Source: an uncultured bacterium
Lineage (GTDB): Bacteria; CG03; SLGR01; JAGXOG01
Direction: 5' to 3'
NCBI GenBank assembly: GCA_964476445.1
Contig: CAYZAK010000001.1
Span: 83,271 to 147,270, forward strand
DNA length: 64,000 nt
Shown here: positions 25,601-58,799 of the stretch, piece by piece
How the letters are laid out: every line of letters starts with the position of its first letter
Position numbering within the stretch: the stretch's first letter is position 1
Notes under the pieces: model-generated
Databases searched by the model: none
The model's input: the letters and a program-made list of their open reading frames with translations, nothing else
What the model was told of the DNA's origin: nothing
Program-made: the position numbers and the translations under genes

Positions 25601-27313
25601 GGCTCCCTGGCCTATTTCATCACGGGGCCTGGACCCCATGATATTGATCTCATTAAGTGTGAGCCGGGGCGCCACTTCAAAACCTATTGGTGGAGATATA
25701 TCCTGTCTTGTATTTGTCTTTCCTCCATCCGGATGCCTGAGTTCAAGCTCCCAGTTGTCGGAAACCGGAGAAGCGGTAGATAGCACCGTAACATACAGCT
25801 CAAGAGTGTTTGCGCTTATACGGTTTTTATCCCTTATAATAACCCCGCCGTGCGGATCCGGGTGCTTAAGTTCGGCAATTACATCTTCTCCAATATAAGC
25901 TCCGTTTACTGTTATGGTAGACCACTGTTGAGAATCGAGAGGAACTCCTTGAGCCCGGCTTTTAGGATTAAAATCATATATCTGTGGGCGCCTGGTAATT
26001 GTAAACTCAGGACTGCGGCCGGGGGAGGAAATACCTCCGTCCGGATTTACCACCCTTACTCTTTCCGTTCCAATACCGGAATTTCGGGTTATCTCAACTG
26101 TTGCGGTTATGGTTCCCGGAGCGAGGTCGTAATTATAGTCATAAGCGAGCACACCTCCGTGTTCAAAATCAAGCGTCGCACCCGGCTGAAACCCGTGACC
26201 GTATACGCTGTAAGTGAAAGTCGAGGCGTTTTGACCGTAAGGCCCCTCGGTGCTTGCCTCGTATACCTGGGGAAGAAATCTGACGGGAACCTCCTGGGAA
26301 GCTCCTGCTCCGTCTATATTGACGCTTATATTTACCGTCCCTGTGATATTCGGGGCCTCAAAAAGAGTCCAGGAATTTTGCCAGACAGACGGCTCTGTTG
26401 ACGGTATATTGTAGTCATCCCAACCCTCAAACCTTATTTCACTCGAAGCGTTTCGGTCTCTAAACATTCCCCCCCGGATCTGGAGCATTATCGGTTCATC
26501 CGGAGTGCTTCCCAGAGTCTCGGTTATTTCTTCTTCGGCGGCATCAAGCACGCTGTATATGTAAGGCCTGAATGTCAGATTATCACTCCAGTTAAGGTAA
26601 GAGTTATTATCTCCCCCGGTATTGTTGTAATAAAAAGCCACTGCACCGCCGTCGCCGGCACTGACTATCTCGTTTTCCACTTCCAGGACCAGCCGGTCTC
26701 CATGATCAATCTCCAGATTTGGATGGGTCTCGGACTCACCGTCAATTATATTGGCCTGCCATCTGTTATATGAACCCTCGCCGCCTGTCTCAGTTTCCGA
26801 CATCGGGCTTTCTCTTATTATCCATTCATTTTTCCGGCTTCCATCGCCCCGCGGCTCAAAATATTCAGTAGAAAGCCAGTTCCTCCTCCATAAATAAATG
26901 TATGCGTTTGCCCTGTGCTGGGGCATTGCATCCTGGTCGTCGTCACTTCCGGCTATTCCAAAACATCCTCGGAAGGTCCAATTCGTTGCATTATATATGG
27001 TCTGTGCGCCATCCAGAGGCGGGGAGACAAAAACACCCATATTATAGTAATCCCCATCAGCTCCCACACTAAATCTATGCTCCTGCTCTTCACTTCCCTG
27101 CCCTATGGTCATAGGATAGGCTTCGCCACTTGCATATTCACGGTCATAATATATACGTCCCCGCGGACTGTTTGGCCTGGGGCCTCTTTCAAAACCGTAA
27201 ACCCCTCCGCTTCGGGGATAAATCGTGTCCGTCTCTATGCCGTCAGCGAAAACCGAGCCGGCGGACAAAATAAGCACAAATATTATGTTTAACAGCGTTT
27301 TATACATCTTCAT
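1..27313 (-). CDS. Giant secreted/surface repeat protein, at least 9,104 aa, 3'-partial (continues beyond position 1)
   Basis: ATG at 27313-27311 overlaps the TGA of the upstream gene (ATGA). N-terminus MKMYKTLLNIIFVLILSAGSVFA-DGIE is a Sec signal peptide. Hand translation stayed open down to position 2 (ends ...GAGNWEYWRGDRWG). Frame checks at 26564, 13508, 8099, 3644 and 1640 agree. The ORF track lists no fragment of this frame, as expected if it has no stop inside the window. Confidence 0.95.
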   Translation of the reverse strand, partial: MKMYKTLLNIIFVLILSAGSVFADGIETDTIYPRSGGVYGFERGPRPNSPRGRIYYDREYASGEAYPMTIGQGSEEQEHRFSVGADGDYYNMGVFVSPPLDGAQTIYNATNWTFRGCFGIAGSDDDQDAMPQHRANAYIYLWRRNWLSTEYFEPRGDGSRKNEWIIRESPMSETETGGEGSYNRWQANIIDGESETHPNLEIDHGDRLVLEVENEIVSAGDGGAVAFYYNNTGGDNNSYLNWSDNLTFRPYIYSVLDAAEEEITETLGSTPDEPIMLQIRGGMFRDRNASSEIRFEGWDDYNIPSTEPSVWQNSWTLFEAPNITGTVNISVNIDGAGASQEVPVRFLPQVYEASTEGPYGQNASTFTYSVYGHGFQPGATLDFEHGGVLAYDYNYDLAPGTITATVEITRNSGIGTERVRVVNPDGGISSPGRSPEFTITRRPQIYDFNPKSRAQGVPLDSQQWSTITVNGAYIGEDVIAELKHPDPHGGVIIRDKNRISANTLELYVTVLSTASPVSDNWELELRHPDGGKTNTRQDISPPIGFEVAPRLTLNEINIMGSRPRDEIGQGATDETLRITGSGFESGNVEVWFDEEADIEVKGVETYATRIEALIDVAGDCPAGPRDIHVRNINNGGYYVWFGSMTVNPRPVINQIVHPEWPTPLQLGVYSETTLEIEGQNFVESRIQLDFGVEDDEIELVDAVVEEEGTKLYATVRIHDGCPLGPKDLKIINQDLGESDPLPDAIDVVGAPGLESLDPAEAGQGAEDYQVTLHGSNFQDGCEIDFGSGISVEIVDYNPETLTVLLNIDEYTSTGLRDVTVTNPDGGYVTRNNFFNVTHSPDINYITPEVRAQGVTGSTLVVVGDGPYFQEGIDIWFSKSSTGYPVDDKIDVGELTSFSQNVMEFVNFNVDAEADLGDRWIVAENPDGGIFISGVSVLSIVEPPYLTPDELTVEGSNPSNQLGQNAREITLRIRGSGFETGISASDVFFDVPHIEVETVNWRSSSRIDVLVNVYHDCPVGDREVTVRNPVSGGTASRDDPGYFVIGARPDNISIVSPVPFEFGQRAQTSGQAVEITGDNFVSGLRIYFGEEWIPLSNVSVDPAKIQCDITVDEYMSTGYSDLIIVNPDQGNYVITDGVMINPHPVLQEFDPDFIGRGADDREMVVQAPGFKEGAVLTLVGPPSGQYNFHSYNYDYGSSSFTVLLDVGEELDVDTYDVRIENPDFGWDILEDGIEIRRNPEIEWISPDNVARGATDREIRIRAPEWGSYQEGCEVYFSTYSAGSPEDPGITVTTITYTDSRTLDIEITVSPEADWSPGGNPDRYLRLLNPDGGEYVTEDPLLTINKPPLLETCNTGASWPAESYELGQGAQSVTLELGGENFQEGADIIINEDDGDVAVTDVDFISSSRIDVTVNVSPDAALGAASVTVTNPDEGTSTQSDPEFLTITPKPAITSASPDNYGQGSEDVEIVLTGEYFLQSIGEEDIDFGSGISVKNVIVESDQELRVTVDIDGNASPVARDVTIVNPDFGVGVGEDVFSVNLGPRVDSISPTTRGQGSQGVEVDIKGAYFSDALTHDDVWFSGTRIDVTDVPFVAVDGSSMTVVIDIAHNASTDTARDVTVRNPDMGMDTIEGAFTVGLKPEIYECDPDALGAGALDQIIEVTGEGFQSGLEAYFSLSSLGDTEDNQISIGDISGDGDVITFSNVDVDPEAEIGPRYLVVINPDGGRAVSDEPVFEVTLAPVIQAISPNRLGQNASNITLNISGLNFQEGIGYGNVTFEPSSGITKHEVNRISEDSIQVRVSINAEADPGFRNVRVENPDQGADVDEDGFQITPRPRFHYASPDAAGQGAQNRIIEIHGTGFQTGMEALFGGDGISPNPAGASGSSTEMSVTISISTDATAPSERSIRLEDPDYGYSIVFDTFTINRAPSVTQLSPSSLGQGAQQREIIVQGSNFQDGITPEDISFSHGGDGIEVTNVEYQSPSEITLTVNVPHGCTAQTGDITIVNPDGGIKTETGIFTVNPAPDVTEIVPSQLSQDMYDEEINIYGSGFDVPGNISREVSFGTTTIETISVSYISDSQLRAYINILSTAGAQDYDITVVNRDGGVTTVTNGFTVSDKPYISHLNHPERGRGALEQDMRIYGGAFQEGSTVTISGEGLTLSTTTRIGSGELQVTLSITYGADLGPRDVTVVNPDGGTYILEDGFTVGDSPATAIGAPWKSRHNDTLTHSTGTVTTDAEKVYLSLKRLSDERWFRAGSGFVSTSEEWIEAAYTTGEEVWEYSMPLGELQHGTSYYIRTYGHGTNAGREQPGSGVTFIYDTEAPEVSITRPVHLAHYNDGSGEIDNRLNQIFGTAEEGTEKIELRIRDQDSELFWDGSDWVSQDQFFDVNAIDPSNWSYSISTANWIDGHSYNVRVRATDIAGNISTPGTGRTFRMDFQVPVTEVLNPEDEGIYNELTVISGSVNDEPGIGEVTMVQIYIQRQSDDFYYDGTEWQNSIEWIDVTSFDQEEWHYNVVEGTFDDGYYEIKVRAQDRAMNLECSDDGTSKPESVFFTWDETPPVTSVVFPEEDDIISDPDMVVEGTWSDPHGIDRIEICIENTDTGRWWTGGSWTDHSEQWVSSEDFANFEIYDGTWSYSGIPWLSGEHRIRTRGSDIVGNIEEPGPARGFMFDATAPDVNIVSIPEDGGWYNDVLTHFQGETADDEHGTGVDSVSLKIQDLSRGTTFWTGTSWVNDPSEDTWAEVSPPLGIWEYPVPPLEHGHVYSVTPRAEDVAGNVSYGSTNMFYYDIESPSSFITTPDDGQYGVISMVEGYSFDSPQDMDGHGVVEIYIYNETDEEYYTGSGNQWDSQMQWLEASWGSWMSAYSFRRWHYELPELSHGKEYTVVSRATDDAGNVEETHPEITFTYNENIPYSLITLPRDGTIIDGNISLVRGEVLNLSEESLSGVDVSIVRGEISGSEKVYYRWDWAEEEWVEVSGTVSYYHWAGADYPAGDRHYFEVDVSGINFDEQEAVYRIYSRARTQSYSESAGRGTAFEIETGFPLTWPDSPVHGDYLSEIEEITGLGAGNIPAQVQVSVQKVAVPEELDVYDENQEDEYWRWTHDEWQSTVYWLDADLSGIEGDWNWSLDVSESGPEGEIDWIHGYYYRIRSRARDINETHTGGTLIMVDRVDPVSEILYPSPGTFKDILTISGTAMDKDSGIAQNGIEVQIRYEDGGTIYYWDEDAGEFSSTTDNRWHSGVCDSAVGGSTVTWTFDASNLNNEFQHGIEYQLLSRATDRAGNVEDPPVEGPQIICDREGPDSVITSPPTGRIINFFTESYDISGTANDALSQVEQVEIQVKRGANYLQDDYSWDAEDNWLQTEYELGEWNISLTTDCWVNDHSSTITVRAIDNLGNIGPAQSSIWFIFDDEPPESEVLKPDGLHNYNDSDHDITDMIYGTVTDNQQVRDVYVRIQRGALDQYWNAEIEDWEEDEDSWNRAQVWSSSWTFTDIPSWVDNWEYRVWSYAVDTATNTESIPGNTYSFIYDSIPPESSVTVPDEDSFWSSSPQLQGASYDGGAGVYDVRALLKYTEGGQSFYWDSVGWAETETPQWISVEEPLSEWHVDPGDLPDEADFTPGRIYRAVSRARDERGPASPRYLNVENYEENWNEFIWDPAPPESEAVYPLNDGLIAEDAFIEGTAHDETGAMEDIPGEMVKTGKVEAVYVRLKKIDGGSEYWWDNTSSPSVWTTDPVWAETQLSPDATSWVLSDSPQWETLEDDYEANIRALDAAGNWETDFSTVSFAADFIPPETEITVPIHGNDYDTLDVIRGTAEDNYENIPTRGMNYVELMIVRDSDGYTWNGDSWSSGGNDWIETDVVSEGPLHWEWEYDLPGVIWESGEYYTVISRGVDKALNIETEEETGKNQNTFRFVAPAETFKISMDLSDSDTTDVQAGEELTIQVEAYNITEEITAMGYRGTVYFNLGGPAGVAGVVPSSYTFTAEDDGIKTFSGEVSTETTRFFSANTGPYPTADGDIYLEVYDDDTYAEPISTRAYVNVYPSALSRFTFQENWANTRAGESRTLTIEARDDFGDMEGGYGNIKHDYLGVVRFASNDPLISRGDGLPEDYEFQESDYGVVTFTEGFIFRRANIGEGNETEKWHVSARDQTVPGSESFYENLVVEPDMLDSFLVVTDTGPQIAGYEGQAASITVSAVDEFLNLLSSGTYEYTGEVEFTSSDTQAELPASPYSFTGEDNAHVEFETSVILKTAGEHWIRVRDEEREREGLQEGIEILPAPASYFRLSVSTDATAGEYNDIVIEALDPYGNRDVNFESLDDNDEGIKLSGTGGFMTNVSHDIVDFYAANNGISTYTAVVAFTEAGTGREITATNIVDQEPVGISETIDGIRVFNAEPDHFTVDRISPEPPIAAGTTMETFRVWIRDEFGNRCQNPPYLGTVEFASSDEQAVFNPETFEYTEEHGGRREFPDLFTLKTLGDQDIYINSMEGPDVIGSTIAITVVPAEHDGFRVETSTIQTSGERYSTRVESIDEYGNIVTDYTGSVRFDSDASDFDFIPFEYDFQEEDQGIREFRSIDGEGIRFSTRGVYYLRVYDFESPAKDGIKEDVFVTDRPVSTVTFPEDGDYINELTPPAIEGTHWDDEEVVEVKVKIQRVSNMFFWNEDAGEWQENEFLNEAEVHESSWTYAGEGINWISGNDYRIMSRARDNRGNYEIDYSTITFLFDSTPPETSFTHPEDGGHRNEPFLVSGTAMDYPAGFDSGLAQLRLQITHQRPGDPATYYWDTPDWVTTESTLYPPAGEEWVYDTMPNWQEGYLYHIYAWHSDHAGNVEDIKSVSFIYDETPPESTISKPDSDYESDKTLEKIWGTAEDLPAEPYYSAGVDRVQVRISSGTGTEIFWDGSSWQHMDPGQAWQEAEWWGSSWTYTSLEGAFEDGITYNVNARAIDRTTSDGITGPNVEVDFSTRTFIYDTIAPETVMERPEDNNTYEMMPEIYGTASDTPPGEVDYVEIRIRQTAGGDFTGMMWDWQEDEWSSSPQQEWSDGITPDGESWSISTSGVSWQATAEGVQYETEFRATDRAGNVEETKSHTWYYSSPFPTTVINTPSGTELNPNYYRSPSQISGEADEYTYENETYVLISSGPTYGTYWDNDSGQWSDTEVWNQVDTPTGEAPYSWYLSVDQSVWIDGTMYNIRSKGVGPAGEESPGSGRYFIIDQTDPTASVQEPAAGAHHQSVSRISGIAEDPSGEAWGYELGKIGEVHITIQDTEDNYYQQGGDWGAGEHWIPVQPIDGTFDSLSEEWYWDVDYPTAVWEDDGQYFIRSRARDHVQPSPNTGSSGLSELIIDTIPPTSGITEPYEEYYNALPQIMGTGADTPPGEWYDIDIMIRRTPGTTRYWDGGGWSISKETLSDEDDEDLIIYSSSWTYSDISWASGYEYRITVRGKDRSGNIETSTQTAEFVYDNRPPVTGGDQPSDGGYYNELLEITGTAQDDSSGQELVSGIEDVEVAYRKSEGTTGYWTQEDWTGQSSEGNWWTAFYSAGNWTEEVENPFADEDSPPDDGQYQVIIRALDKAGNWQTEFSTVTFTWDLTPPGFSDVSPSTSATINSMDVGLTLDEKMQVGPTRVVFEAQSGWNEEVEGSTYTAILNEAQGEDLEFQTIPWDQFDGELIDGNRYTLRLEGQDLAGNFDDGSWYFSDMIYDTTRPQSKFTYPYKYDHSTMSIISGTAEDPPPTAGSFFAGVEGTEVRIFRDYGEGSQESWDGESWDSGSHWLSAEGTESWQYEVTVTTAFEHNREYRVETRAYDSAANTQTVPTAHLFMMDTVPPEGLIEFPEPDEYYNTMTDISGTAADDLSGISVDGVKLRIRKSDSPIYYWSGTDWVLDEVWVEASFSVEDWSFESGPGASALGEYDDGTPFEVLAMISDDAGNTYTAPAVTFYNDTAFPSAEITNIESGQYYNPNTLVDIEGEASGEPSGIYSVEVVVEAEDEYWNPATESWQGDEIIWIPAESTTADTYETWKVGGINWLDGIPHHIWMRVTDKAENRTVYDTESDSTIENIQDYYVRFTYDETPPDSLVDFPENNKYYNIQYGTVTGQAFDPLPGSGVSRVRILLQRASDDQWWRGTYWGGERTMTVDFFDPDWEFYISPEARSVFYENPEEEYFIYTYAEDYAGNIEDLTAKTTFYYDVVPPTSTVELPETETEEEYYTAGDEVDTLIHGGQYDGYSGIDKVEVKISSGNNYWTGSVWTEEEQYSAINAQLHTSSWTYTDVPVWEDDVLYEITSRALDVAGNVGETPVTKRFQYDISEPESFVEMPVDGQGYEMMDEITGTALDATSGVDEVEVAIRENFGDLRHWDTQTGDWVSGTVFSTMVFSGGKWRFDSSGVPWQDDSDYRIRLRATDNVGITETNITNESQSVFTYYKPAVDFEFVRPDGTELDGEVTAGSTVPFKLTALNEDGNPAKWYQGTVEFSVAHEEYDTAPTSYTFTTADEGSRIFEGNVSSTALNFVYRDASSWVRAEDSDDEDLFKVQNIDVKWAPAQKIQLTGVPAYQVAGEIQSPVVEIFDGQWGDWGNPVEDFDGEVTFESENYPYETDMPGNYNFDGIEGGEHEFTDQLELKEKNQDTGWQVNARIVGTSIENDQYVIVNPAGIDHFILTGLPDPFEAGAESGITVEARDEFENTKTDYQGTISFDTDDVHEEVNFPDDYTFEPEDSGVHNFEGLTVTDTVRLITSGSRYVRVEETAFGVWMGTRTVTVEPSAVEAFEVSMTTQITAGVVQNITVEAVDEFGNLQTDYTGTVVFDSDNENFESLGPGEISDGYQEFTNWVTLKEASDPLTQRFEVTVEDGNNNLGSQEGIMVEAAVAEKLTVDYPGQVDAGSPNTAGVSVRDEFNNIVYDWSGEVTFHTGGTDDTATVDGFAVPVELTLTEGSENYTAIYRSAGVNQELWAYAGGLSSGTRTGITVDAGELEQFGVKLGGLSEDNAVSINRPVDITVEAQDEFDNVVENYVSTVTFASEDILADLPGPSNYTEDDDGVKTWPGGAVFNSSNTAEGWKITVTDDNDATKTGESVNVRVLLPPDTSVDMPYDGYRSWSLDSTSGTAVPHHEDYAEVTKVEMRLYCESGGDREGQYWRGGISWGAERWRELDYNSQEQVFYSEDLPSWDNLDVDGNAIYRFYFRAYDSLKGTETVRGPYRFYTDRGLPESEITSHSHGENYSSIDLIEGTAKDPGEFSNITNVQIQISYIDEGTTYYWNQSIQSTTTASYWNDTTEATGDGFGISPVVDWYFNAENVAWQNQKEHKIRTRSVDDAANVEEPVYEIAVTYDTDTPVSDIDVPAEGEVRNELEVISGTAFNEFGVDKIDVRIEKDGQYWTGSGWGGEEWLEGASGNWGDSAVSWNFSIPGEPFDENTQYQLTSRAEDTAGNVEDAGDLTEVIFIYDTLAPTATVTSVYDGDAVNWSFEGIEGTAYDTNEVELVQVALRRDPGAWWDGTAWSTDFEDMKWIDGQTADNYENWNLPQIDWENGRMHQVWMRVKDEAGNKEVYDSDVSQHIEANQGSLLSFRYDESTPTAWVDYPKNEASHNDMVEPLTGAAEDYPSPNSGVSDVRIKIQRSSDGNYWDGEVWGGDISMYADYGAGSWEYGISETDIGIFYENNEETYYIYSRARDNAGNIEPWEIKSVYHYDVVPPTSTINYPDEGEYYTSGEPEEIRGEMHDGYSGVDFVKLQISSGSYNWTGSSWTTAEVRVETQMFTSSWTYTTLSGAWADAGAYEVKTYVKDEAGNVQISTPSVTFIYDDSEPYSYLNTPVDGAMYESMDVVRSTGADDLSGLDTVDMAIRQDFSPYYWWDASGSTWTEVQTYNPTTQSGEFFELDTSTIQWEDDRYYNVYARAVDNVGLQESDPSSSRFRYVKPVTHLSLELIDGTDLDGQFTVAGDDMDIQVRALNEDGTVALGYTGEITFYTTEDSEEAKLPDNYTFTLNDEGLAEFPAGLNLKKSGDWQVTVSAVDPEGPASDSNTVTVENASIEKVRLDLYEGSQTETAGDELSPRVRIYDGQWGEWGNLVLDYEGTVEFAFISDEDTQATLPSTHTFTTGEGEDNGDRTFTEEMVLRTTAEEGWTVRARDTANPGEWYGDMTIAVDPAGIDNFVLTGLPDPYRAGTSTGIVVEARDEFNNRKTDYTGTVTFDTDDEHEGVILPADYTFSTGTLADNGLHVFEADYDTTTVRLITAAENRVVRIKDTDYTPWMGEDQIEVIAGERVNYEVSMSTDIDAGADYDITVRAVDEFGNLDTGSSDPVQFFTNNPVGYYSLPTAGQNLVEGERTFTDGVTLNRSSWTTEGYINDPWYVEVRHIDHPSPEIDGRQPGIKVNPAETSQFRVTGIQATLAAGEEDAFYVIARDEYGNRDINYSNTVTFTSDNTDWTVAPGTFTYSTSTERGLNLFTVEFRESGDNFSLRAFQSDPYDETIEGHQYPISVEPASLDSLSLSGIADPQRVDYETSGVLVQAVDQFGNIFENYTSTVSFNAPTSDIQVSPEPYNFVLEDEGESEFEVKMMTPGEHDVQVYDINDPDIYGWQDGITVATRPVSASTMPYVGLHTQPLTDISGTALAYSPAEVTGAQIKLRYMEGDEAYEDLYWEGGGSWVAEENWRPRDGTEEWTGGVPALWRLEEESQAARYRLWTRSFDSLGSTETVESSIDFWVDNAPPETGISSPDGEYVNEKPTIEGTAVDAGEISAITEVDIALKYIDEGTTYFWNHSGEGNWEESETYIWNPAAPLGEAFDSPSEQWVWDATAAEWNDGEEHWIYTRAHDEAQNIESPLKNRIVYDTQVGVSAVTYPEGGGQNYNEMDLIQGSAYDDQGVDFVGISIFNGEYYYNTETTDFDLAEENWILVEGTTSWSWNSSNVDWGAAGSEYWVTSKMTDLAGNQESTAEKNGISFIYDITTPESFVEYPMEGEFEQINDSTHTFTIYGTAVDEYSDVSKVELVIQMDEEDYWTEQGWTTEDINWVEAELHPSSWTYTGVNLRDGLVNNIWVRAYDDVKSEPNKEQVEETDILNSQNYNSEFRYDITPPYSDMVYPVRGESYNIMIATFTGSFRDPNYGSRVSEVAIQLRKDDGAGNWEYWRGDRWG
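1640..3646 (-). repeat. Type-B Ig-like repeat block 3 (6 units)
   Basis: Six ~100-115 aa units, e.g. AGIDNFVLTGLPDPYRAG..VEARDEFNNRKTDYTGTVTFDTDD..LPADYTF. Confidence 0.8.
3647..6146 (-). repeat. Trp-rich Ig-like repeat block 3 (7 units)
   Basis: Units begin PPDTSV, DRGLPES, DTDTPVS, DTLAPTA, DESTPTA, DVVPPTS, DDSEPYS. Confidence 0.8.
6147..8101 (-). repeat. Type-B Ig-like repeat block 2 (6 units)
   Basis: Six units with A-x-D-x-F/Y-G/x-N...Y-x-G-T-V-x-F motif. Confidence 0.8.
8102..13510 (-). repeat. Trp-rich Ig-like repeat block 2 (15 units, one Trp-poor variant at ~10262-10597)
   Basis: Units begin DRPVST, DSTPPET, DETPPES, DTIAPET, SSPFPTT, DQTDPTA, DTIPPTS, DNRPPVT, DLTPPGF, DTTRPQS, DTVPPEG, DTAFPSA, DETPPDS, DVVPPTS, DISEPES. 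Confidence 0.8.
13511..15592 (-). repeat. Type-B Ig-like repeat block 1 (6 units)
   Basis: Consensus AG..v.v.A.D.FGN....Y.G.V.F.S.D...LP..Y.F...D.G...F, e.g. VESIDEYGNIVTDYTGSVRFDSD..FEYDFQEEDQGIREF. Confidence 0.8.
15593..20692 (-). repeat. Trp-rich Ig-like repeat block 1 (14 units)
   Basis: ~115-130 aa units: DxxPPxSxIxxP...IxGTAxD..SGVxxVEVxI...YWxGxxW...W...WxY...WxxGxxYxIxSRAxDxAGNxE...FxY. Confidence 0.8.
20693..26569 (-). repeat. 20 tandem IPT/TIG-like repeats
   Basis: ~90-105 aa units with P-x-I-x-x-x-x-P..GQGA..v.I.GxxF.xG..v.F....R.V.V.NPDGG, e.g. APSVTQLSPSSLGQGAQQREIIVQGSNFQDG...ITIVNPDGG. The first unit is more divergent. Confidence 0.8.
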
Positions 27314-28890
27314 AATGCTATGACCACATATTTTCTTATGAAGTATAAAATCACGCCGTAATAAAGTATGCTTATATAAGAAACATAAGCAGCTTTATGC
27401 TCAAACCTGTAGACTATAAATGCCGCCGTCAGGCCCAACACTCCGGCGGCAATATACAGCATACTCAAACCCGTCAGTAACGGAACAACCATAAAAGCGC
27501 TAAAAATAACCGGGGGAACAATATGCCTGCTTAGCTTTTTTCTGTACCTTAAAATTCCTGCAAGTGTAAAACCTAAAAGAGCCGCTTGCCACAGAGGGCC
27601 GGGCAAAAGGTGGACCGCTTCCCTGTCTGCAAGCAATCCATATCCGGTAAAGAAAGAAAACATGTATGTAAGAGCAATAAACAGATCAGAAATTATAGGT
27701 ATCCGTTCTATCTTAAGAGGCGGAAGCATTATAAAATAAAAAAGAAGAATAAATACGATAAGATAAAGCAGGCACCAGTAAGTGGTGTTGATAGCAGCAA
27801 ATATTGCCATAAAAAGGAAAATTGACGCTATCAGCTTCTGCTCTCCGAAAGAGGCCCATTTTAAAGACCGGTCAGATCTTTTATTAATAATCCCTTTTAC
27901 CGTGCAGATATGTAAATAGGCAAAAAAGACAGCCAGGGCAAGCATTACGGAAGCAAAGTAATCTATCGGATTCTGAAAGGCGTGGGGCAGCACATTTTCC
28001 ATTCTCCAGATTCCCATAACAATCCCGGCAACCGTGAGTGCTGCATAATTTAAACCTTTTGACCAATTAATATTTTTAATCCAAACGCTAAAATTTTTCT
28101 TTCCAGCATATATTCTAAACCATATTAATAGAAAAATCGTTATCATAACCATAAGCAAAATTCCGGTTATCTGGGTATTGGTGTGTACTAAACCGGGTGT
28201 TCCCATAAGCTTATCGCCAAGCGAAGCCCCAATTAATTCCTCAGGAACATATCTGCTAAATATGGGAAATATTCTGTATATAGGCCCAACAGTAACAACG
28301 TGAAGGAAACCTAGTAGTACAACAAAACTGAACTGACTCATTATCCAGCCTGATACCGCTTTTAAAATACTTTGGGTTTTTATATATATGTAAGTTGCCA
28401 CACCGATACAAAGAAAGAGAGCCTCTAACCGTTGTCCGATTGAGTGCCTTTCAAATTGGTAGAAAGGGTTAAAAATGTTTATGAGTGCTGGGAGTATTTC
28501 CGAAAATTCGGTTCCGTACTGTAAGGGATATCCTCCAACGGTAACATAATCCCATAAGGGGACAATCCAGCTCACAATCCAGAAAACAATAACTATTTTG
28601 GATATTTTGAGGATATTTTCCTTTGTGAGAAGATATATTATGCAGCAGACTATCAGATACATTTCAATGTGAGCAAGTGCGTATGCGTTAAATATCTTCA
28701 ATATGGAAAAAAACTGAGGATAAGACGGATGGGTTTCGTGTCCTATTGTGTGGGTCCAGGCAAGCCCGTCACCAAAATTTCTCATCAGAATTACTACGGC
28801 AAAGAAAAGCAGCCACCAGGCGGTACCCGCCGGGTTATTTTCAACGGGTTCAATAATTTTTTCCTTTATGCAGTTAATCATTATCTCCAA
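27310..28890 (-). CDS. Multi-pass membrane protein: unknown N-terminal membrane domain plus catalytically degenerate UbiA-like C-terminal domain
   Basis: Many hydrophobic segments. The C-terminal ~260 aa align by eye to the 288-aa UbiA two genes upstream but lack both Asp-rich motifs. Confidence 0.8.
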   Translation of the reverse strand: MEIMINCIKEKIIEPVENNPAGTAWWLLFFAVVILMRNFGDGLAWTHTIGHETHPSYPQFFSILKIFNAYALAHIEMYLIVCCIIYLLTKENILKISKIVIVFWIVSWIVPLWDYVTVGGYPLQYGTEFSEILPALINIFNPFYQFERHSIGQRLEALFLCIGVATYIYIKTQSILKAVSGWIMSQFSFVVLLGFLHVVTVGPIYRIFPIFSRYVPEELIGASLGDKLMGTPGLVHTNTQITGILLMVMITIFLLIWFRIYAGKKNFSVWIKNINWSKGLNYAALTVAGIVMGIWRMENVLPHAFQNPIDYFASVMLALAVFFAYLHICTVKGIINKRSDRSLKWASFGEQKLIASIFLFMAIFAAINTTYWCLLYLIVFILLFYFIMLPPLKIERIPIISDLFIALTYMFSFFTGYGLLADREAVHLLPGPLWQAALLGFTLAGILRYRKKLSRHIVPPVIFSAFMVVPLLTGLSMLYIAAGVLGLTAAFIVYRFEHKAAYVSYISILYYGVILYFIRKYVVIAL

Positions 28891-29858
28891 TCAAGTTTTC
28901 TCTCTTCTGCTTCCCGTATTCGTTCTATGCTTTCAATACGGCTATCCAGTGTTTCTCTGTAAACATCCCCACGTGAAGGCACATATTTGTAGCTTTCCCT
29001 GTATATCTCTTCTGCTTTTTCCAACTCGCCTTTTCTCCTGTAAACATCTCCCAGAAGAAGACTTATCCCCGGGTTATCCGGTGATATTTCAAGCGCATCA
29101 TAAACAATACTCAAGGCCCTCTCATACTCCTCGGCACTCAGCATTGAATTAGCCAGGTACAGGTGGATAACTGCCGTTCTGTTACCTAATTCTTCATTTT
29201 TCAGGATTCCTTTAATGTATACTTTCTCCGCCTCATCATAGTTTTCTTTCCGGGCATGAAAAAACCCCAGGTAAATGTATCCCTTAAGAAAATCCGGATT
29301 TTCTTCAACAGTTCTCTTCAAGTTTTTTTCCGCATTTTCAGAGTCATCCAATTTCATGTGCGTATGCCCAAGCACGAAATAAGCAATAAATTTATCGGGG
29401 TTTCGGGATATTGCTTTTTCAAGTACGGAGAGCGCGTCATCATTACGATTAGCTCTGGCGTATGCATCACCAAGCATCACTTTGGAATAATAATTGCCGG
29501 GAATTGCCTCATTTAGTTGTTCGGCAAATTCAAGAAGCTGCTCAAATTCGGAATCCATCGACGCAGCCCTGCTTAACGTCTCCCTTGCTTCATCAGGATA
29601 GTTTAAAATGTAGTAAGAGTACGAAAGAAGATAAACAGGAACAGCGTTTTCCGGCTCATCATCCATCCATTCTTCCGCTAAATCTTTCAGCATATCGAAA
29701 TCTTCTTTTTCATAAGCAGCAGATACTTTTTGCAGGAGATTTTCGTCAGCCAAACCGGAAGTGCTTAAAGCAAGGCATATAAAAACAATAAGGATAAAAT
29801 ATTTAATTATAATTGCGTAGTTTCGCACAGAAATTGTTTTTTTATAACTGTTCCTCAT
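28881..29858 (-). CDS. Exported tetratricopeptide-repeat protein
   Basis: Signal peptide (..LALSTSGLA-DE). TPR units such as AYFVLGHTHMKLDDSENAEKNLKRTVEENPDF and ISLLLGDVYRRKGELEKAEEIY. Confidence 0.88.
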   Translation of the reverse strand: MRNSYKKTISVRNYAIIIKYFILIVFICLALSTSGLADENLLQKVSAAYEKEDFDMLKDLAEEWMDDEPENAVPVYLLSYSYYILNYPDEARETLSRAASMDSEFEQLLEFAEQLNEAIPGNYYSKVMLGDAYARANRNDDALSVLEKAISRNPDKFIAYFVLGHTHMKLDDSENAEKNLKRTVEENPDFLKGYIYLGFFHARKENYDEAEKVYIKGILKNEELGNRTAVIHLYLANSMLSAEEYERALSIVYDALEISPDNPGISLLLGDVYRRKGELEKAEEIYRESYKYVPSRGDVYRETLDSRIESIERIREAEERKLDWR

Positions 29859-30721
29859 ATAATTCCTCCGTACATAAGCTCACTTCTTAAAAATAAAAAC
29901 ATAACTGCCGAATAAACATAATAAGTTACAAAATACGGACCTTCGTCCCACTTTTTTTTAAGAAGCCAGTAAACACCAAGCACGGAACCCGCAATGGAAA
30001 AGTAATAAAGAGCGGTGATACCAAGAATTACAGGTACGCTAAAATAAGCCAGTACGGTAAGCATAATAATCATAGCGCGTGCCAATCTTTCGCCCATGAT
30101 CGTCGGAATAGTTTTTATACCCTCAACCAAATCTCCTTCTCTGTCTTTGATATCTTTAATATTTATAGAAAACATGAAAACCACAAATATCATAATTGCC
30201 ACGCGATGCGGAAATAATTTGGGCGTTTCATAGCCTGCTATTACACTGAATCCGGCAACCACAGCAATCAAAGCATTAAGAGCTATTACTAAAGTGTTTA
30301 GGGGGAAAAAACGTTTTAACCGAAAAGGCGGCATGGAATAAAAAACTGCTGATATATAGCAGCATAAAATAAGAATTAAAGGAACAAGCCCAGCCAGATA
30401 ACTTAAAATAACAGAGACAAAGAAACAAAATAGCCCCCACTTTTTATAAATAGAAGCGCTTACCTTCCCTGTCAGTAACGGGCGATCCGGGTTAGAAACC
30501 CTGTCTCCATTAATATCATAAAAATCATTAAAAACGCAGGCAGCCTGGAAAGCAAATATTATACCTGAAAAAAGAAATATTATTCTCATTAAATATTCAC
30601 TAAAACTTCCCTTAACGGCGGGATGCCAGCAGGCTATAAAAGCACCGCCTAAGACCAGTCCCGAATAATGAACCGAACGATACGGCCTCATATTTTTAAT
30701 GAGCACTTTTAAGTGACTCAT
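29855..30721 (-). CDS. UbiA-superfamily prenyltransferase (DGGGP-synthase/chlorophyll-synthase-like motifs), substrate unknown
   Basis: Both Asp-rich motifs intact: NDFYDINGDRVSNPDRPL and NIKDIKDREGDLVEGIKTIP; YSMPPFRLKR; ~9 hydrophobic segments. Confidence 0.92.
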   Translation of the reverse strand: MSHLKVLIKNMRPYRSVHYSGLVLGGAFIACWHPAVKGSFSEYLMRIIFLFSGIIFAFQAACVFNDFYDINGDRVSNPDRPLLTGKVSASIYKKWGLFCFFVSVILSYLAGLVPLILILCCYISAVFYSMPPFRLKRFFPLNTLVIALNALIAVVAGFSVIAGYETPKLFPHRVAIMIFVVFMFSINIKDIKDREGDLVEGIKTIPTIMGERLARAMIIMLTVLAYFSVPVILGITALYYFSIAGSVLGVYWLLKKKWDEGPYFVTYYVYSAVMFLFLRSELMYGGII

Positions 30722-31404
30722 CTTAACAGTTCTCCTCTTTCTCTTGTCTCTTCAACCCTCCTTAACCCTCTCAAAGCGGCGTTTTTAACAGTTGGTTCTC
30801 CTTCATCCGCCGCTTCTGTCAAAGCTCTCTCAATCCTGACGGTATCCCCATCGTCAGGCGCCCCCGATATAAGCATCTCTGCAAGCGAATCAAGGGCAGC
30901 TACCCGAACCCGGGAACTTTCATGGTCTTTGGCTTTTTCAACCAGGATATCAAGCACTTCCTCTCCCCCGCTTCTTCCCAACGCTCTTATAGCAGCTGGT
31001 CTTGTGTTTTCATCTCCTTCAGCAACTGCCTCTACAAGGGCTTCCACGGCTTTTTTCTCACGGAACCCGCCCAGTGCCTGGGCCGTCATTATCCTGACCG
31101 CAGCGGACTGATCGGAATTTAAAGCATTCAGCAGCGCCGGCAGGGCGCTTCTGTCCCCGATCCGACCAAGTGAAACTGCAGCATGTAACCTTACTCCGGA
31201 AGAGTTGTCCTCAAGCAAAGCTATTAACTGCGGAAGGGATTCCCTGTCAAGTTCGTTGCCCAGGCGCTGCGCTTCCCTCATCCGGACAACCGGGTCGGTG
31301 CTGGATAAAAGAGTGTATTCCGCCCAAAGAACAGAATTAACAGTTATTGCGAATATTGCCGCAATAACCGTAACTTTAACTAACTTATTAATTTTTTTAA
31401 TCAT
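30718..31404 (-). CDS. Exported HEAT (PBS-lyase-like) repeat protein
   Basis: Signal peptide (..VNSVLWA-E). Repeats such as DNSSGVRLHAAVSLGRIGDRSALPALLNAL. Confidence 0.88.
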   Translation of the reverse strand: MIKKINKLVKVTVIAAIFAITVNSVLWAEYTLLSSTDPVVRMREAQRLGNELDRESLPQLIALLEDNSSGVRLHAAVSLGRIGDRSALPALLNALNSDQSAAVRIMTAQALGGFREKKAVEALVEAVAEGDENTRPAAIRALGRSGGEEVLDILVEKAKDHESSRVRVAALDSLAEMLISGAPDDGDTVRIERALTEAADEGEPTVKNAALRGLRRVEETRERGELLR

Positions 31405-31535: not shown

Positions 31536-32042
31536 TTATTCTAAAAAGACGGGAACCCTGAATCTGGGCTCGTCTAAGGTAGGTAGGTTTCCCTTAAAAG
31601 TTAAAACTGTGGTAATAAAAATCAGGGGGAACCCTAAAAAGAAAAAAGTGCTGTTAGTACCGGAATGGGATAACAACCTGAAAAATTCTTTCATTGAAGT
31701 GTTTGGGCTGTAAAATAGAGTAATCGCCGGAGAAGGAAACTCAAAATTGGGAACATGGTTTAAATTTGCTTCCACCGGGGTTAAAGGTCCGCGACGCCAC
31801 CTGGTCGAACCGGCCGGGCTTAAAATATTGTAAATTTTTGAAAACGCGGTCTGTTCAAAGACAACTGCGGACTCTACCGGCCGGTTGTTTTTATCCCTGG
31901 ATTCTACCCTCATAAAATGAGAGGTGTCGCCGCCGGGAATATTTAAAACCCGGGCCTGGAGCTTTTGCCCGCCGGATAATCCTCCGATCATTATGGAGGT
32001 CAGCGCGAATATTAAAGTTATTTTTTTTATCTTATTATTCAT
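31536..32042 (-). CDS. Hypothetical exported protein with hydrophobic C-terminal segment
   Basis: 168-aa ORF with signal-peptide-like N-terminus and FFFLGFPLIFITTVL near the C-terminus; first gene after the riboswitch terminator; no recognised family. Confidence 0.6.
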   Translation of the reverse strand: MNNKIKKITLIFALTSIMIGGLSGGQKLQARVLNIPGGDTSHFMRVESRDKNNRPVESAVVFEQTAFSKIYNILSPAGSTRWRRGPLTPVEANLNHVPNFEFPSPAITLFYSPNTSMKEFFRLLSHSGTNSTFFFLGFPLIFITTVLTFKGNLPTLDEPRFRVPVFLE

Positions 32043-32127: not shown

Positions 32128-32213
32128 TCCTACCGGTAATCCAGCCCTCCGGATGTCCCGGAGCTGTGATTTTGCGAGCCGCCCGTTACCGAACGGTTGC
32201 CCTTATCAGCGGA
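32128..32213 (-). promoter_or_regulatory. Cyclic di-GMP-I (GEMM) riboswitch aptamer
   Basis: RNA UCCGCUGAUAAGGGCAA-CCGUUCG[GUAA]CGGGCGG-CUCGCAAAAUCACAG-CUCCGG[GACAU]CCGGAG-GGCUGGAUUACCGGUAGGA. P2 has a GNRA loop; GCAAA linker; UUACCG 3' motif; P1 UCCGCUG/CGGUAGGA. Positions equivalent to Vibrio Vc2 G14-C93, G20, A47 and C92 are all present. Confidence 0.88.
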
Positions 32214-32243
32214 CTTTCCATATATTTCATACTTCAATCGTTC

Positions 32244-32279
32244 ACTATAATTACTAACATCAGTTTTACAATTTGTCAA
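32244..32279 (-). promoter_or_regulatory. Probable sigma70-type promoter for the riboswitch leader
   Basis: TTGACA at 32279-74, TTGTAA at 32271-66, TATAGT at 32249-44 (TTGTAA-N16-TATAGT); exact -35/-10 pairing is ambiguous. Confidence 0.55.
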
Positions 32280-32347: not shown

Positions 32348-33280
32348 TTACGGTAAATCTATACCCAGAAAAGAAGCCGCTGTTGCCGCATCCCTTTCCA
32401 CCCGGGGATTGTCCGAATTGTAAGCTGCCCGGACTGCAGCTTTTACCTGTTCATTTACCTGGCCTATGGCACCTAAAGCCCTGAGACCGGTTCTTTGAAT
32501 GTCGGTATCATTGGAAGTGGCCGCCTGTAAAGCTACGGGCAAACCCCGGTTATCCCCGAGCTGCCCCAGGGCGTGGGCGGCGGCTATCTTTACTTCCCGG
32601 TCCGGTTCCAGGTTTAATAAACTTTTTAACGGGGATAGGGCATCGGCTTCTCCCACTTCGCCTAAGGCACGGACTGAAAAAAGTCTTACGTCTTTATTTT
32701 CATCGTTTAATCTTTCTATTAGAGCACCTGTGGATTCTGAACTTCTAATACGGCCTAAAGACTGGGCGGCCACCCTACGAATTCGGGGTTCTTCGTTTTC
32801 AAGGGCTTCCGTCAATAAGGGCACCGCCTCACCGGCCCCTAAAACTCCCAGGACATTAATGGCAGAAACTTTAAGTCCCCTGTCCTCCTCTTTTCGGACA
32901 AAATCAATCAGATGTTCAACCGCGCTGCGGTCCCTTATGTAACCAAACGAAACTATGGCCGCCGCTTTAACGTTCCGGTTTTCATCTTGAAGGGCTTCTA
33001 TTAAATACGGCAGGGCATCCCGGTCTCTTAAATTACCGAGAACTTCCGCAGCCCTGGCTCTCACGCTAAAATGAGGATCCCGGGTCAAAACCCGGCCGAG
33101 CCTTTCAACTATTTCCGTTCCGTCATATTCCGAAAGTCCGGAAACGGCCGTCCGCCGGCGGGACGGAACTGTGCTCTCTAAAAGTTCAAAATGCTCCTCC
33201 GGACCGGCAGAGTAGCCTTCGCCGGACGTCACTAATAGTATTAATCCTATAACTGGAACTAAAATTGTTATTTTTCTCAT
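32348..33280 (-). CDS. Exported HEAT (PBS-lyase-like) repeat protein
   Basis: Signal-peptide-like N-terminus; ~8 repeats such as DPHFSVRARAAEVLGNLRDRDALPYLIEAL; AGGAGG RBS at 33290-85. Confidence 0.9.
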   Translation of the reverse strand: MRKITILVPVIGLILLVTSGEGYSAGPEEHFELLESTVPSRRRTAVSGLSEYDGTEIVERLGRVLTRDPHFSVRARAAEVLGNLRDRDALPYLIEALQDENRNVKAAAIVSFGYIRDRSAVEHLIDFVRKEEDRGLKVSAINVLGVLGAGEAVPLLTEALENEEPRIRRVAAQSLGRIRSSESTGALIERLNDENKDVRLFSVRALGEVGEADALSPLKSLLNLEPDREVKIAAAHALGQLGDNRGLPVALQAATSNDTDIQRTGLRALGAIGQVNEQVKAAVRAAYNSDNPRVERDAATAASFLGIDLP

Positions 33281-36300: not shown

Positions 36301-36421
36301 ATTCCTTATTTTTATGAAAAAACTTTAACAGTTTTTCCGGCGCCGTAGAACCGGTTCCCGGACCGGATCGGTACCATAAATCTATAATTTTTTTTTTATC
36401 TTTAGAATGCTTTTCGGGCAA
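33353..36421 (-). CDS. mfd: Transcription-repair coupling factor
   Basis: CarD-like RID (GDYVVHKKFGVG), MDRLVCGDVGFGKTEV, IIDEEQQFGV, TATPIPRT, QLRGRVGRS, DLELRGAGELLG, TRCF C-terminus. Confidence 0.96.
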   Translation of the reverse strand: MPEKHSKDKKKIIDLWYRSGPGTGSTAPEKLLKFFHKNKECKIRGTTPPAFASLAGSFSKTVDRNILCLIQKDNRLHKVKNNIQSFTDRKVMAYPSDYLSRQVEVLKALTREESMVVVASLDSFFEKVVPPEEFKAEGLILRPTNSTYEKILKVLEKASYSREQIVAEPGDFSRRGEVIDFWPPGNDNPVRLVFEFDRLNEIKVFDVTTQRTLKTVEETEIIPVTAGGDSDSSTVAEYMDKNIPVFIFNEEILSKIKEKENNFSPVFIIKTEVQKPDMEFDIRPVRYSRQYDISPDEILRPLKKEGYDITLTAHTASELRILSEKVKQVLGFIPRSEISPLEKGFIVKDSEKAVVCITDIFPYHRRISSSRAVPKHPMEKVSGLNRGDYVVHKKFGVGLFSGLIKMKHDGITSDFLKLKYRGAGKLYVAVENADMVQKYVGSRFSTRLDSLSGNSWQKKVFRIRKSVKQLAKKLIKMYKKRQNKGFSFEPFSKMEKEFNRAFPHTLTPHQKDAVEDVIGDMESEQAMDRLVCGDVGFGKTEVSMRAAYRAVLNGKQVAFLAPTTVLARQHFHTFLDRFSNQPVIIEMLSRLVPKKRQRKIIKNVNRGKVDIVIGTHKLLSDALKFPSLGLVIIDEEQQFGVKQKEKLRFKSENVDILTTTATPIPRTLGMALGRVKGFSLINTPPPGRVGVKTMVMEMDMYTVQEALKKEVARGGQSFYIHSRVRSIKKVAGELKEKLPGLTIDYIHGRMSSGRIDGKMEKFVEGEIDCLVATTIVENGLDIPNANTMVIDRADELGLADIYQLRGRVGRSDIKGYCYLMYPEYKKLTPKVSKRLSVLSSFSNLGGGFQLSLKDLELRGAGELLGPRQHGNIMKVGFEYYSEILKEEVARMKGEDYVTPLEVDISLPLNAYIPEDYIDSARLRLSFYRRLAGTKEEETLKELTDELYDRFGSIPGPLRNLLKIIKLKILASKAGVSGISANKKQEVIFKLQSGEKIKTRLKKSDNFREIEDMLKNIDLLGDN

Positions 36422-50737: not shown

Positions 50738-51238
50738 CTATTGATTAATTTTCCTCCCTCTCAACATTACTCTTTGAGAAAGCGTCGCGCTCTGCTGATT
50801 CTGAGTTACAGTCAGAGTGGCTCCCACATGGGCATAGTTTGAAGCGGGTTCCGTATCCATATATATAAAAAATTTTTCCACCCCACCGGGAATTAAAGTA
50901 GTAGTTGACTTTCTCATCATCCTGTATAGATTATCTCCGGATTTAAAATATTTAATTGTATTGTCCCCCCCCCACTCCTGGGTTGAGCGAGAAATTTTAA
51001 ATTTTATTGAACTGTTACCGGTTATCTCAATAGGATCTTCCGAAGTCTGCCGGACATATCTTGTGATTTCATTCATGGCCGATCTGGATTTTCCAAACAC
51101 ATCAACCGAATCCCTGGTCATCCACCATATATCAAAAGTATTTCTAAAAAACCTGAAAGTTCCAATACTTAAAATTCCCAATATGGCTATACTTATACCC
51201 AACTCTATTAAGGTTACACCCTGGTTCTTTTTTATCAT
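50738..51238 (-). CDS. Type IV prepilin-like protein (PilW/GspJ-like minor pilin)
   Basis: Class III signal KKNQG-VTLIELGISIAILGIL (G-1, E+5). Confidence 0.88.
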   Translation of the reverse strand: MIKKNQGVTLIELGISIAILGILSIGTFRFFRNTFDIWWMTRDSVDVFGKSRSAMNEITRYVRQTSEDPIEITGNSSIKFKISRSTQEWGGDNTIKYFKSGDNLYRMMRKSTTTLIPGGVEKFFIYMDTEPASNYAHVGATLTVTQNQQSATLSQRVMLRGRKINQ

Positions 51239-58451: not shown

Positions 58452-58799
58452 TTAATTTTTCTCATCCGAATCTTTATCTTTGCCGTCTTCAGTGTTTGGG
58501 GACTCTTTTTCTTTCTCCATTTCATCAACATACGTTAACTGTAAATTGGTGACGGTGGACTCCAGAATGTCTTTCTCTTTTTTGGTTAAATTCCCTTTGG
58601 TCTTTTCAGACAGCATCTCGAGCATATCAATGTAAGTCCGGGCCATATTCAGATTTTTATCCACTTTACCGGTCTGGGGGTTGGAAATTTTCCCCATTCC
58701 CACCAGAGCAGTTTGAGAAAAAGAGACCACTATATTGGAAAAATCTTCATCCACCTGATTAACTTTATTTTTCTGTTGATTCATAATTACCTCCATCAT
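58452..58799 (-). CDS. DUF1844-domain protein
   Basis: ALVGMGKISNPQTG..NLNMARTYIDMLEMLSEKTKGNLT..E...L..LQLTYV. Confidence 0.88.
   Translation of the reverse strand: MMEVIMNQQKNKVNQVDEDFSNIVVSFSQTALVGMGKISNPQTGKVDKNLNMARTYIDMLEMLSEKTKGNLTKKEKDILESTVTNLQLTYVDEMEKEKESPNTEDGKDKDSDEKN

Follow-up and report, generated by a model that had tools for sequence, protein, structure and literature searches.

A UbiA-type prenyltransferase, a predicted UbiA pseudoenzyme with a novel membrane domain and exported repeat proteins encoded in an operon-like cluster with a giant surface-protein gene

Results

Organization and coupling of the gene cluster

We analyzed a stretch of 64,000 nucleotides (nt) from an uncultured bacterium (contig CAYZAK010000001.1, positions 83,271 to 147,270; the whole stretch is called the window), in which a gene for a UbiA-superfamily prenyltransferase belongs to a tightly packed cluster that runs into a giant gene. 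The minus strand carries every long open reading frame (ORF) between 1 and 33,280. In the direction of transcription, these encode a HEAT-repeat protein with a signal peptide (HEAT310, 310 amino acids (aa), 32348-33280), a single-pass protein with a signal peptide (g168, 168 aa, 31536-32042), an exported HEAT-repeat protein (HEAT228, 228 aa, 30718-31404), the prenyltransferase, with both catalytic motifs intact (UbiA288, 288 aa, 29855-30721), an exported TPR protein (TPR325, 325 aa, 28881-29858), a protein with 15 predicted transmembrane (TM) helices (m526, 27310-28881 or 27310-28890) and the N-terminal 9,104 codons, without a stop, of a secreted immunoglobulin (Ig)-repeat protein (1-27313), the gene for which continues past the edge of the window.

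An earlier sequence-only reading of this DNA had proposed that the genes between 27310 and 31404 form one translationally coupled unit that closes with the giant gene. The way in which stop and start codons overlap bears this out: the ORF positions were as given, and the ATGA overlaps of 4 nt at 30718-30721 (HEAT228/UbiA288), 29855-29858 (UbiA288/TPR325) and 27310-27313 (m526/giant gene) were verified in the sequence. An overlap of 10 nt (28881-28890) between the genes for TPR325 and m526 had also been described. This holds if m526 starts with the TTG at 28890 (526 aa), but the junction reads ...AGA TAA TG ATT..., and a start at the ATG at 28881 (523 aa) gives a TAATG overlap of 1 nt. The ATG is the better supported start, since it agrees with the public 523-aa gene call and with the MINYIK start of a homologue that is 67% identical. 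The coupling is equally tight with either start. The HEAT/UbiA overlap was repeated in three related loci (L003, L004 and L007), and the genes for the TPR protein, a 527-aa counterpart of m526 and a giant protein followed one another in the same order in a fourth (L001). Since the same couplings recur in related loci, the arrangement is not due to chance.

The limits given for the cluster stood for the genes listed but proved too narrow upstream of 31404, where the conserved cluster also includes g168 and probably HEAT310. A promoter-like site (11/12 matches) was found upstream of HEAT310, at 33343-33315; in promoter and terminator scans of the region, promoter-like sites did not rise above the shuffled background. 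In L035, the public annotation calls an ORF of 49 aa (6603-6752, about 32130-32279 of the window) within the 305 nt that separate HEAT310 from g168.

Housekeeping genes (mfd, uvrD, NUDIX, htrA, metG, glnS, gltX, hisG and others) make up the remainder of the window. The absence of quinone, heme and archaeal-lipid pathway genes, noted for the vicinity of the cluster in the sequence-only reading, extends to the full 64 kb. Neither geranylgeranylglyceryl phosphate (GGGP) synthase nor glycerol-1-phosphate (G1P) dehydrogenase nor CarS was found among the scanned window ORFs of at least 150 aa. The window also contains no tetrapyrrole gene and no gene for a polyprenyl synthase, glycosyltransferase, flippase or polymerase, and a tblastn search of the 64 kb disclosed no homologue of radical S-adenosylmethionine (radical-SAM) enzymes.

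UbiA288 is a UbiA-superfamily protein outside the characterized clades

UbiA288 matched Pfam PF01040 over residues 45-255 with 116 bits (gathering cut-off 34.2). It contains the two Asp-rich motifs of the superfamily, NDFYDINGD (N65-D73) and KDREGD (D193-D197). N65, D66, D73, D193 and D197 were invariant in 8/8 family members (UbiA288 and seven close homologues), and the middle Asp of motif 1 (D69) was present in 7/8, being replaced by Asn in P0009. From its motifs, UbiA288 is presumed to be the active enzyme of the cluster.

None of the NCBIfam equivalogs compared with UbiA288 (UbiA, MenA, CyoE/CtaB, ChlG/BchG, digeranylgeranylglyceryl phosphate (DGGGP) synthase, HPT, EboC and MqnP) passed its cut-off. 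The scores, in bits, were 90 for PRK12884 (cut-off 269), 66-70 for DGGGP synthase (296-353), 66 for ChlG (313), 47 for ubiA_proteo (275), 43 for cyoE (210) and 18 for MenA (264). The closest solved relative was DGGGP synthase (6m31), with an E-value of only 4e-14. As judged by sequence, UbiA288 belongs to the UbiA superfamily but to no characterized clade; all scores were far below cut-off for MenA, UbiA and CyoE, a place among which had been named as an argument against a new system.

m526 combines a predicted dead UbiA fold with a novel six-helix domain

Although neither Pfam nor NCBIfam recognized it, the C-terminal half of m526 (residues ~265-523) is paralogous to the adjacent UbiA288 (BLAST E-value 3e-6 directly, and 1e-34 to 1e-40 through L002_537, the corresponding protein of L002). 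Motif 1 reads VKGIINKRS, with six residues deleted relative to its UbiA288 counterpart NDFYDxxGD, and the loop of motif 2 (KDREGD in UbiA288) is deleted. An AlphaFold2 (AF2) model built on an alignment of 68 sequences had a predicted local distance difference test score (pLDDT) of 93 and a predicted template modeling score (pTM) of 0.92; a 3-sequence alignment gave a pLDDT of 42 and was unusable. A Foldseek search of the PDB with the former model returned only structures with the UbiA fold (DGGGP synthase, ApUbiA, AfUbiA and Rv3806c), the top matches (6m31, 7bpu, 4od4, 4tq6 and 8j8k) having probabilities of 0.94-1.0 and target TM-scores of 0.47-0.59. The UbiA fold and the loss of both Asp motifs substantiate the earlier designation of this protein as a pseudo-UbiA: by sequence and model, its C-terminal half is a catalytically dead UbiA fold, i.e. 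a predicted pseudoenzyme. Over its full length, m526 shares 67% identity with its L001 orthologue.

The N-terminal part of m526 (residues ~1-262) is a separate domain of six TM helices, hereafter the N-domain, which had escaped the sequence-only reading and is the best-conserved part of the protein. It had no Pfam or NCBIfam match, and a profile of 16 sequences found no relative among PDB sequences (best E-value 5.6). No structure of the glycosyltransferase C (GT-C) fold was among the Foldseek matches of the whole m526 model, in which the N-domain and the UbiA half were searched together. We considered that the N-domain could be a third degenerate UbiA repeat and rejected this, as hhalign matched only 17 residues, overlapping the start of the UbiA domain. 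Across 100 representatives, the conserved positions were E14, R34, E38, H66, P108, D111, Y122, G149, R151, E153, Y164, K168 and P206, and the m526 of the window keeps 12 of these 13.

The topology of m526 was deduced from the helices of the AF2 model and the positive-inside rule. The loops on one side of the 15 TM helices hold 17 Lys and Arg residues and those on the other side 3, and we therefore infer a cytoplasmic N-terminus, with the dead Asp loops on the same side, as in known UbiA enzymes, and a periplasmic location of the C-terminus and of the polar cluster of the N-domain. The cluster formed by R34, D/E38, H66, D111, Y122, R151 and E153 is predicted by the model to lie at the periplasmic leaflet. 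The predicted topology also fits the signal peptides of the TPR and HEAT proteins.

Exported partner proteins

Both HEAT proteins matched Pfam HEAT_2 (HEAT228, 1e-29; HEAT310, 8e-59; scores of 103 and 196 bits), and HEAT310 is a paralogue of HEAT228 with 34% identity. TPR325 matched Pfam TPR_2 (3e-24, 84 bits). Signal peptides, which for the TPR and HEAT proteins and g168 were read directly from the sequence, are present on all HEAT and TPR partners. The best NCBIfam matches of the HEAT proteins, all sub-threshold, were phycobilin lyase subunits and NblB. Orthologues of HEAT228 (42-50% identity) lie directly 5' of the UbiA gene, with the 4-nt overlap, in L003, L004 and L007, and orthologues of TPR325 take the same position as in the window in L001 (56% identity) and L007 (39%). 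HEAT310 weakly matched the truncated first gene of L002 (E-value 1.6e-4), which hints that its sequence, too, is conserved.

The third type of partner, g168, had no Pfam or NCBIfam match and was likewise overlooked in the sequence-only reading. It consists of a signal peptide, a domain of ~100 aa, a C-terminal TM helix and a tail, EPRF(R/L)xP(V/I)xxE, that ends at the stop codon. Orthologues were found in L002 (48% identity), L004, L007 and L016, always within the cluster, which with the window makes five distinct loci. The tail is invariant after the TM helix in these orthologues and is confined to them. The exported HEAT proteins and g168 are confined to this clade.

The giant gene and the loci of the close clade

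The giant protein carries a signal peptide and matched the Pfam families TIG, Big_13, Big_3_2, Big_3_3, Big_7 and Qn_am_d_aIII. A second contig carrying the window locus leaves the giant gene open for 6,864 aa up to the contig end. Over the N-terminal 1,000 aa, the giant protein of the window shares 52% identity with a 17,658-aa protein encoded after the same module in L001. The G+C content of the giant gene (46-50%) differs from that of the operon just upstream (~39%) and of the housekeeping genes at 44-50 kb (33-36%); this shift could stem from the residues that make up the Ig repeats, or the giant gene could be of foreign origin.

The close UbiA clade is represented by 4 loci in the GTDB species-representative genomes, every one of them on a contig of <10 kb. 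The gene order in the window is mfd, HEAT310, g168, HEAT228, UbiA288, TPR325, m526 and the giant gene (at least 9,104 aa). In L001, the visible order is a gene for a B12-dependent radical-SAM protein, the TPR gene, the m526 orthologue and the giant gene; the truncated first gene of this locus, tried as a UbiA, was rejected, since it encodes the C-terminus of the B12-radical-SAM protein. L002 has UbiA, the m526 counterpart (N-domain and dead UbiA), g160, HEAT and then a large Ig-repeat protein that reaches at least 1,682 aa before the contig stops. L007 has mfd, g172, HEAT, UbiA, TPR and an N-domain protein that is cut by the contig end. L003, L004 and L009 share the order (g130), HEAT, UbiA, followed by one to four class-B B12-radical-SAM genes. 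A giant gene adjoins the module in 3/3 close-clade loci in which the far side is visible (window, L001 and L002), and in L002 it is still adjacent although the internal gene order has been rearranged.

The class-B radical-SAM genes, which also had not been anticipated, lie between UbiA and TPR (L003, 1696-7479; L004, 2118-3982; L009, 2830-4125; L001, 2-538). Two of them, encoding proteins of 543 and 530 aa, form a diverged pair. No NCBIfam equivalog cut-off was reached, the best sub-threshold matches being BchE (113 bits vs. 481), HpnJ, HpnR and the radical-SAM protein of ladderane lipids. Because the window has none of these genes they are optional, and they suggest an optional tailoring of a lipid or peptide.

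The wider family: fusions, fissions and genomic contexts

An indexed search of 5.8 billion proteins for relatives of m526 gave a single protein, the one with 67% identity, and a 6-sequence profile returned 3 proteins. Exhaustive searching with HMMER yielded 442 representatives at E<1e-3, 148 of them at E<1e-10. The family members are mostly of 500-560 aa and consist of the N-domain followed by UbiA; both Asp motifs were retained in 115 of 152 proteins examined. About one third of the family is longer (750-950 aa), and a C-terminal TPR domain was found in 9/9 proteins of this size that we tested, the order in relatives of ~800-950 aa being N-domain, UbiA, TPR. UbiA288 and its stand-alone clade group closely with the UbiA domains of the fused proteins (35-37% identity, 245 bits to the A1 profile). 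The only annotations given to the proteins are 'UbiA family prenyltransferase' and 'hypothetical', and the protein and contig labels point to metagenome-assembled genomes of Elusimicrobiota, Planctomycetota/Planctomycetia, Eisenbacteria, Edwardsbacteria and Sumerlaeota.

The domains are also divided in other ways: in L022 an N-domain-TPR fusion precedes a separate UbiA, in L021 a stand-alone N-domain comes after UbiA, and in L026 UbiA and the N-domain are a few genes apart. That the three domains are fused and split in many arrangements strongly indicates that N-domain, UbiA and TPR function together as a unit. In L036, a gene for a 572-aa protein with an N-domain and an active UbiA overlaps (TAATG) a gene for an 820-aa protein with an N-domain, a dead UbiA and a TPR domain, and the two are 36% identical; pairs of active and dead UbiA proteins have therefore arisen more than once. 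We rejected L023-L029, in which a UbiA of ~30% identity follows a protein of ~800 aa, as family members, since these ~800-aa proteins lack the N-domain.

The sequence-only reading had looked to the linkage of homologues with giant or surface-protein genes. Such linkage was found in the window, L001, L002, L034, L031 and L036, and was missing in L018, L019, L030 and L033. The neighbors in L031 and L036 include several Por_Secre_tail/FlgD_ig proteins, i.e. proteins with a C-terminal domain (CTD) of the type IX secretion system (T9SS) type, and a Kelch/FlgD_ig protein. In L034 they are PqqD, a C25 peptidase and a 3,483-aa SdrD_B/CLIPPER protein, with a further protein of at least 990 aa encoded downstream. 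L026 has Lgt, a pilin-like protein, a Wzy_C-TPR protein and a DUF11/FlgD_ig protein. In L018 and L019, rnc and mfd are followed by the fused active gene and then by unrelated genes (RND efflux, oxidoreductase), and no surface-protein gene is near the module in L030 or in L033, the latter containing PAP2 and glycosyltransferase genes. The core of N-domain, UbiA and TPR is much older and wider than the link with giant genes.

Two contexts deserve to be recorded in their own right. The module lies directly 3' of mfd in the window (mfd at 33353-36421), L007 (2-664), L018 (5009-10849) and L019 (5060-10828), and it is unusual that this position beside a DNA-repair gene persists in L018 and L019, the UbiA regions of which are only 35-36% identical to UbiA288. 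In L034, a C25 (gingipain-like) peptidase and a PqqD-like protein of 96 aa are encoded (6988-9878) between the 3,483-aa protein and the N-domain-UbiA gene. PqqD-like proteins usually are peptide-recognition elements for radical-SAM enzymes.

Other features of the window

On the minus strand, at 51235-53583, the window encodes a 782-aa FG-GAP protein with a C-terminal FlgD_ig domain, like the CTD-type proteins of L031 and L036, which suggests that the source organism uses CTD-type surface proteins. It is followed by ORFs of 322 and 422 aa (53587-54555 and 54574-55842) without a Pfam match. Also on the minus strand are a gene for an 866-aa protein with a C-terminal Glucodextran_C module, a cell-surface binding module resembling S-layer homology (SLH) domains (42695-45295), and two adjacent genes for paralogous class-I tRNA synthetases, one of the GlnRS type and the other of the GluRS type (56761-58437 and 58765-60213).

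Discussion

A possible lipid-dependent machine acting on a giant surface protein

We interpret the locus described here as the 5' part of a conserved operon, in an uncultivated bacterium probably related to Elusimicrobiota, and its core as a split form of a widespread, uncharacterized inner-membrane machine, the modules of which share one polypeptide in most relatives. The core modules are the 6-TM N-domain, a UbiA domain with a predicted cytoplasm-facing Asp site and a TPR domain that would be periplasmic. Its topology, the formation of a heteromer, the lipid product and the relationship to a client are put together, in the following scheme, from sequences and models. A duplication would have divided the work: UbiA288 would keep catalysis without the N-domain, m526 would keep the N-domain on a dead UbiA, and the TPR domain would act as a separate protein. 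UbiA288, probably as a heteromer with m526, would make a polyprenyl-linked lipid at the cytoplasmic leaflet, and the N-domain would use or present this lipid at the periplasmic leaflet. Solved UbiA-fold enzymes have been reported to form oligomeric assemblies. The TPR and HEAT solenoids and g168 would hold the secreted client, and the outcome may be the lipid-dependent modification, anchoring or assembly of the coupled giant Ig-repeat surface protein. We hold this client-directed model tentatively, with doubt slightly outweighing confidence. A more far-reaching version of it, in which the cluster would belong to a bacterial protein-lipidation or lipid-anchoring pathway unknown until now, with UbiA building an isoprenoid donor at the cytoplasmic leaflet, the N-domain transferring it on the periplasmic side to secreted proteins (giants of 9,000 to 17,000 residues among them) held by the TPR and HEAT partners, and active/dead heteromers as a recurrent feature, appears unlikely to us in this full form.

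Several observations weigh against the client-directed model. The link to a giant gene is seen in three loci only, the window and L001 being fairly close relatives, and the putative clients of different loci are not homologous to each other. L018, L019, L030 and L033 have the module with no surface-protein gene nearby, which means that the core module needs no giant client. The position after mfd is shared by the window and distant relatives, and some of the synteny could accordingly reflect common descent and not function. Finally, H66, which is conserved in 87% of the N-domains, is Ala in the m526 of the window, and the N-domain could therefore be impaired.

The contexts just mentioned are also the main argument for a different explanation, which we regard as rather doubtful though deserving serious attention, namely that the module serves a general envelope-lipid or polymer pathway (e.g. 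a polyprenyl-linked glycan donor, or polymer export with a TPR scaffold) and is merely co-located with the giant gene, the adjacency reflecting a shared regulation of genes for the cell surface or synteny beside mfd that was simply inherited. It would account for the fused active enzyme standing alone after rnc-mfd among housekeeping and efflux genes in L018 and L019, for L030 and L033, which have no surface-protein neighbors, for the PAP2 and glycosyltransferase genes near the module of L033, for the position of the L026 module beside Lgt and a Wzy_C-TPR protein resembling O-antigen ligases, and for the post-mfd position kept in the window and L007. It fits less well with the 4-nt ATGA overlap of the giant gene with the last gene of the module, with the giant gene having stayed adjacent in L002 despite the shuffled order of the module, and with the lack of any glycosyltransferase, flippase or polymerase gene in the window. 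Furthermore, because giant genes are rare, three adjacencies are unlikely to have occurred by chance.

The nearest relatives of UbiA288 (DGGGP synthase, with 4e-14 for 6m31, PRK12884 and chlorophyll synthase), the one to four class-B B12-radical-SAM genes of L001, L003, L004 and L009 and the sub-threshold matches of the HEAT proteins to phycobilin lyase subunits and NblB would all agree with the synthesis of a specialized isoprenoid lipid or cofactor (e.g. an ether lipid of the archaeal type or a tetrapyrrole-like compound carrying a prenyl group), with radical-SAM tailoring and with HEAT and TPR proteins as assembly factors. All these matches are, however, far below cut-off (66-70 bits vs. 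296-353 for DGGGP synthase; 113 vs. 481 for BchE), the radical-SAM genes are optional and absent from the window, and so are the genes for GGGP synthase, G1P dehydrogenase, tetrapyrrole synthesis and a polyprenyl synthase. Such a pathway would also leave the periplasmic partners and the coupling to the giant gene unexplained, and we judge it decidedly unlikely. That the module is decaying, with m526 a non-functional relic of the duplication and the operon structure a leftover, would be in line with the deletion of both catalytic motifs of m526 and with the replacement of H66 by Ala, but seems highly improbable to us: its 523-aa ORF is unbroken and shares 67% identity with the L001 orthologue from end to end, 12/13 conserved positions of the N-domain are kept, the dead fold is still modeled confidently (pLDDT 93), and the separate active/dead pair of L036 argues for a selected role of the pseudoenzyme.

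Taken as a whole, the sequence-only reading was supported in part; the N-domain, g168 and the radical-SAM genes of the relatives had been missed. The catalytic core is an ordinary UbiA enzyme. What we regard as new in the system is the N-domain, the family of fusions, the pairing of active and dead proteins, the addition of HEAT proteins and g168 and the coupling to a giant gene. If our reading is correct, the N-domain would be a new membrane-protein domain with a conserved, periplasm-facing polar site and several hundred representatives in poorly known phyla, and the recurrent pairing of an active enzyme with a pseudoenzyme, of which we found no report in the literature, would be a feature of the UbiA superfamily. 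The cluster would then also represent accessory machinery that is conserved for giant surface proteins of bacteria, unlike the published contexts with type II/IV secretion and glycoside hydrolase genes, and would provide a concrete handle on how proteins 10,000 to 18,000 residues long are exported, modified or anchored. The ordinary-looking UbiA core makes the hypothesis experimentally accessible.

Comparison with known systems

A literature search found no description of a module with this composition, in agreement with what the sequence-only reading had stated. With the UbiA superfamily (DGGGP synthase, 6M31; AfUbiA, 4TQ3; ApUbiA, 4OD5; chlorophyll synthase, MenA, UbiA and CyoE), UbiA288 shares PF01040 and the NDxxDxxxD and DxxxD motifs, and it differs from it by its dead paralogue, the new 6-TM domain and the periplasmic TPR and HEAT partners. 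The likeness of the module to two other groups of enzymes is one of design only, not of sequence. In mycobacteria, Rv3806c, a decaprenyl-phosphate phosphoribosyltransferase with the UbiA fold, acts in a pathway in which it makes a polyprenyl-linked donor at the cytoplasmic face of the membrane, and GT-C arabinosyltransferases use this donor at the outer face. The two-face logic proposed here is similar, and Rv3806c (8J8J/8J8K) was among the structural matches of m526. The corresponding model PRK12324, however, did not match the UbiA of the window and gave 25 bits (cut-off 207) with one protein of the wider family, and PRK08238, the model for HAD-fused UbiA proteins, reached 21 bits (cut-off 351). 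Moreover, genes for a GT-C enzyme, a phosphatase or an epimerase are lacking, and the N-domain showed no similarity to GT-C proteins in the sequence searches or in the structure search with the whole of m526. The second group comprises TPR-tailed GT-C enzymes of the PMT/TMTC type and Wzy_C-TPR proteins, which likewise join a polytopic enzyme to a TPR domain on the periplasmic or lumenal side, this domain being thought to bind protein substrates. They share no sequence similarity with the proteins described here, in which the lipid-handling part has a UbiA fold.

Dedicated membrane machinery is likewise found beside large secreted proteins in the T9SS, where the CTD is cleaved off and the protein attached to anionic lipopolysaccharide (A-LPS), in sortase/LPXTG and exosortase/PEP-CTERM systems (the latter with the TPR lipoprotein PrsT) and in archaeosortase systems. 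The archaeosortase-dependent anchoring of S-layer glycoproteins uses an isoprenoid lipid anchor, and the neighbors in L031 and L036 carry the Por_Secre_tail/FlgD_ig C-terminal domains of the T9SS. In contrast with these systems, the module contains no sortase, exosortase or PorU-like protein and its enzymes are unrelated to theirs; the C-terminus of the giant protein lies beyond the window.

Around the giant genes of Omnitrophota lie glycoside hydrolase genes and genes for type II/IV secretion or pili (West-Roberts et al. 2023, doi 10.1101/2023.11.21.568195; an Omnitrophota preprint of 2026, doi 10.64898/2026.06.07.730766), and UbiA or prenyl genes are not mentioned in either of these preprints. 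The Omnitrophota loci and the locus described here have in common a very long secreted protein, an uncultivated bacterium as the source and conserved accessory genes nearby; the Omnitrophota giant proteins are multi-enzyme proteins, whereas that of the window is an Ig-repeat protein.

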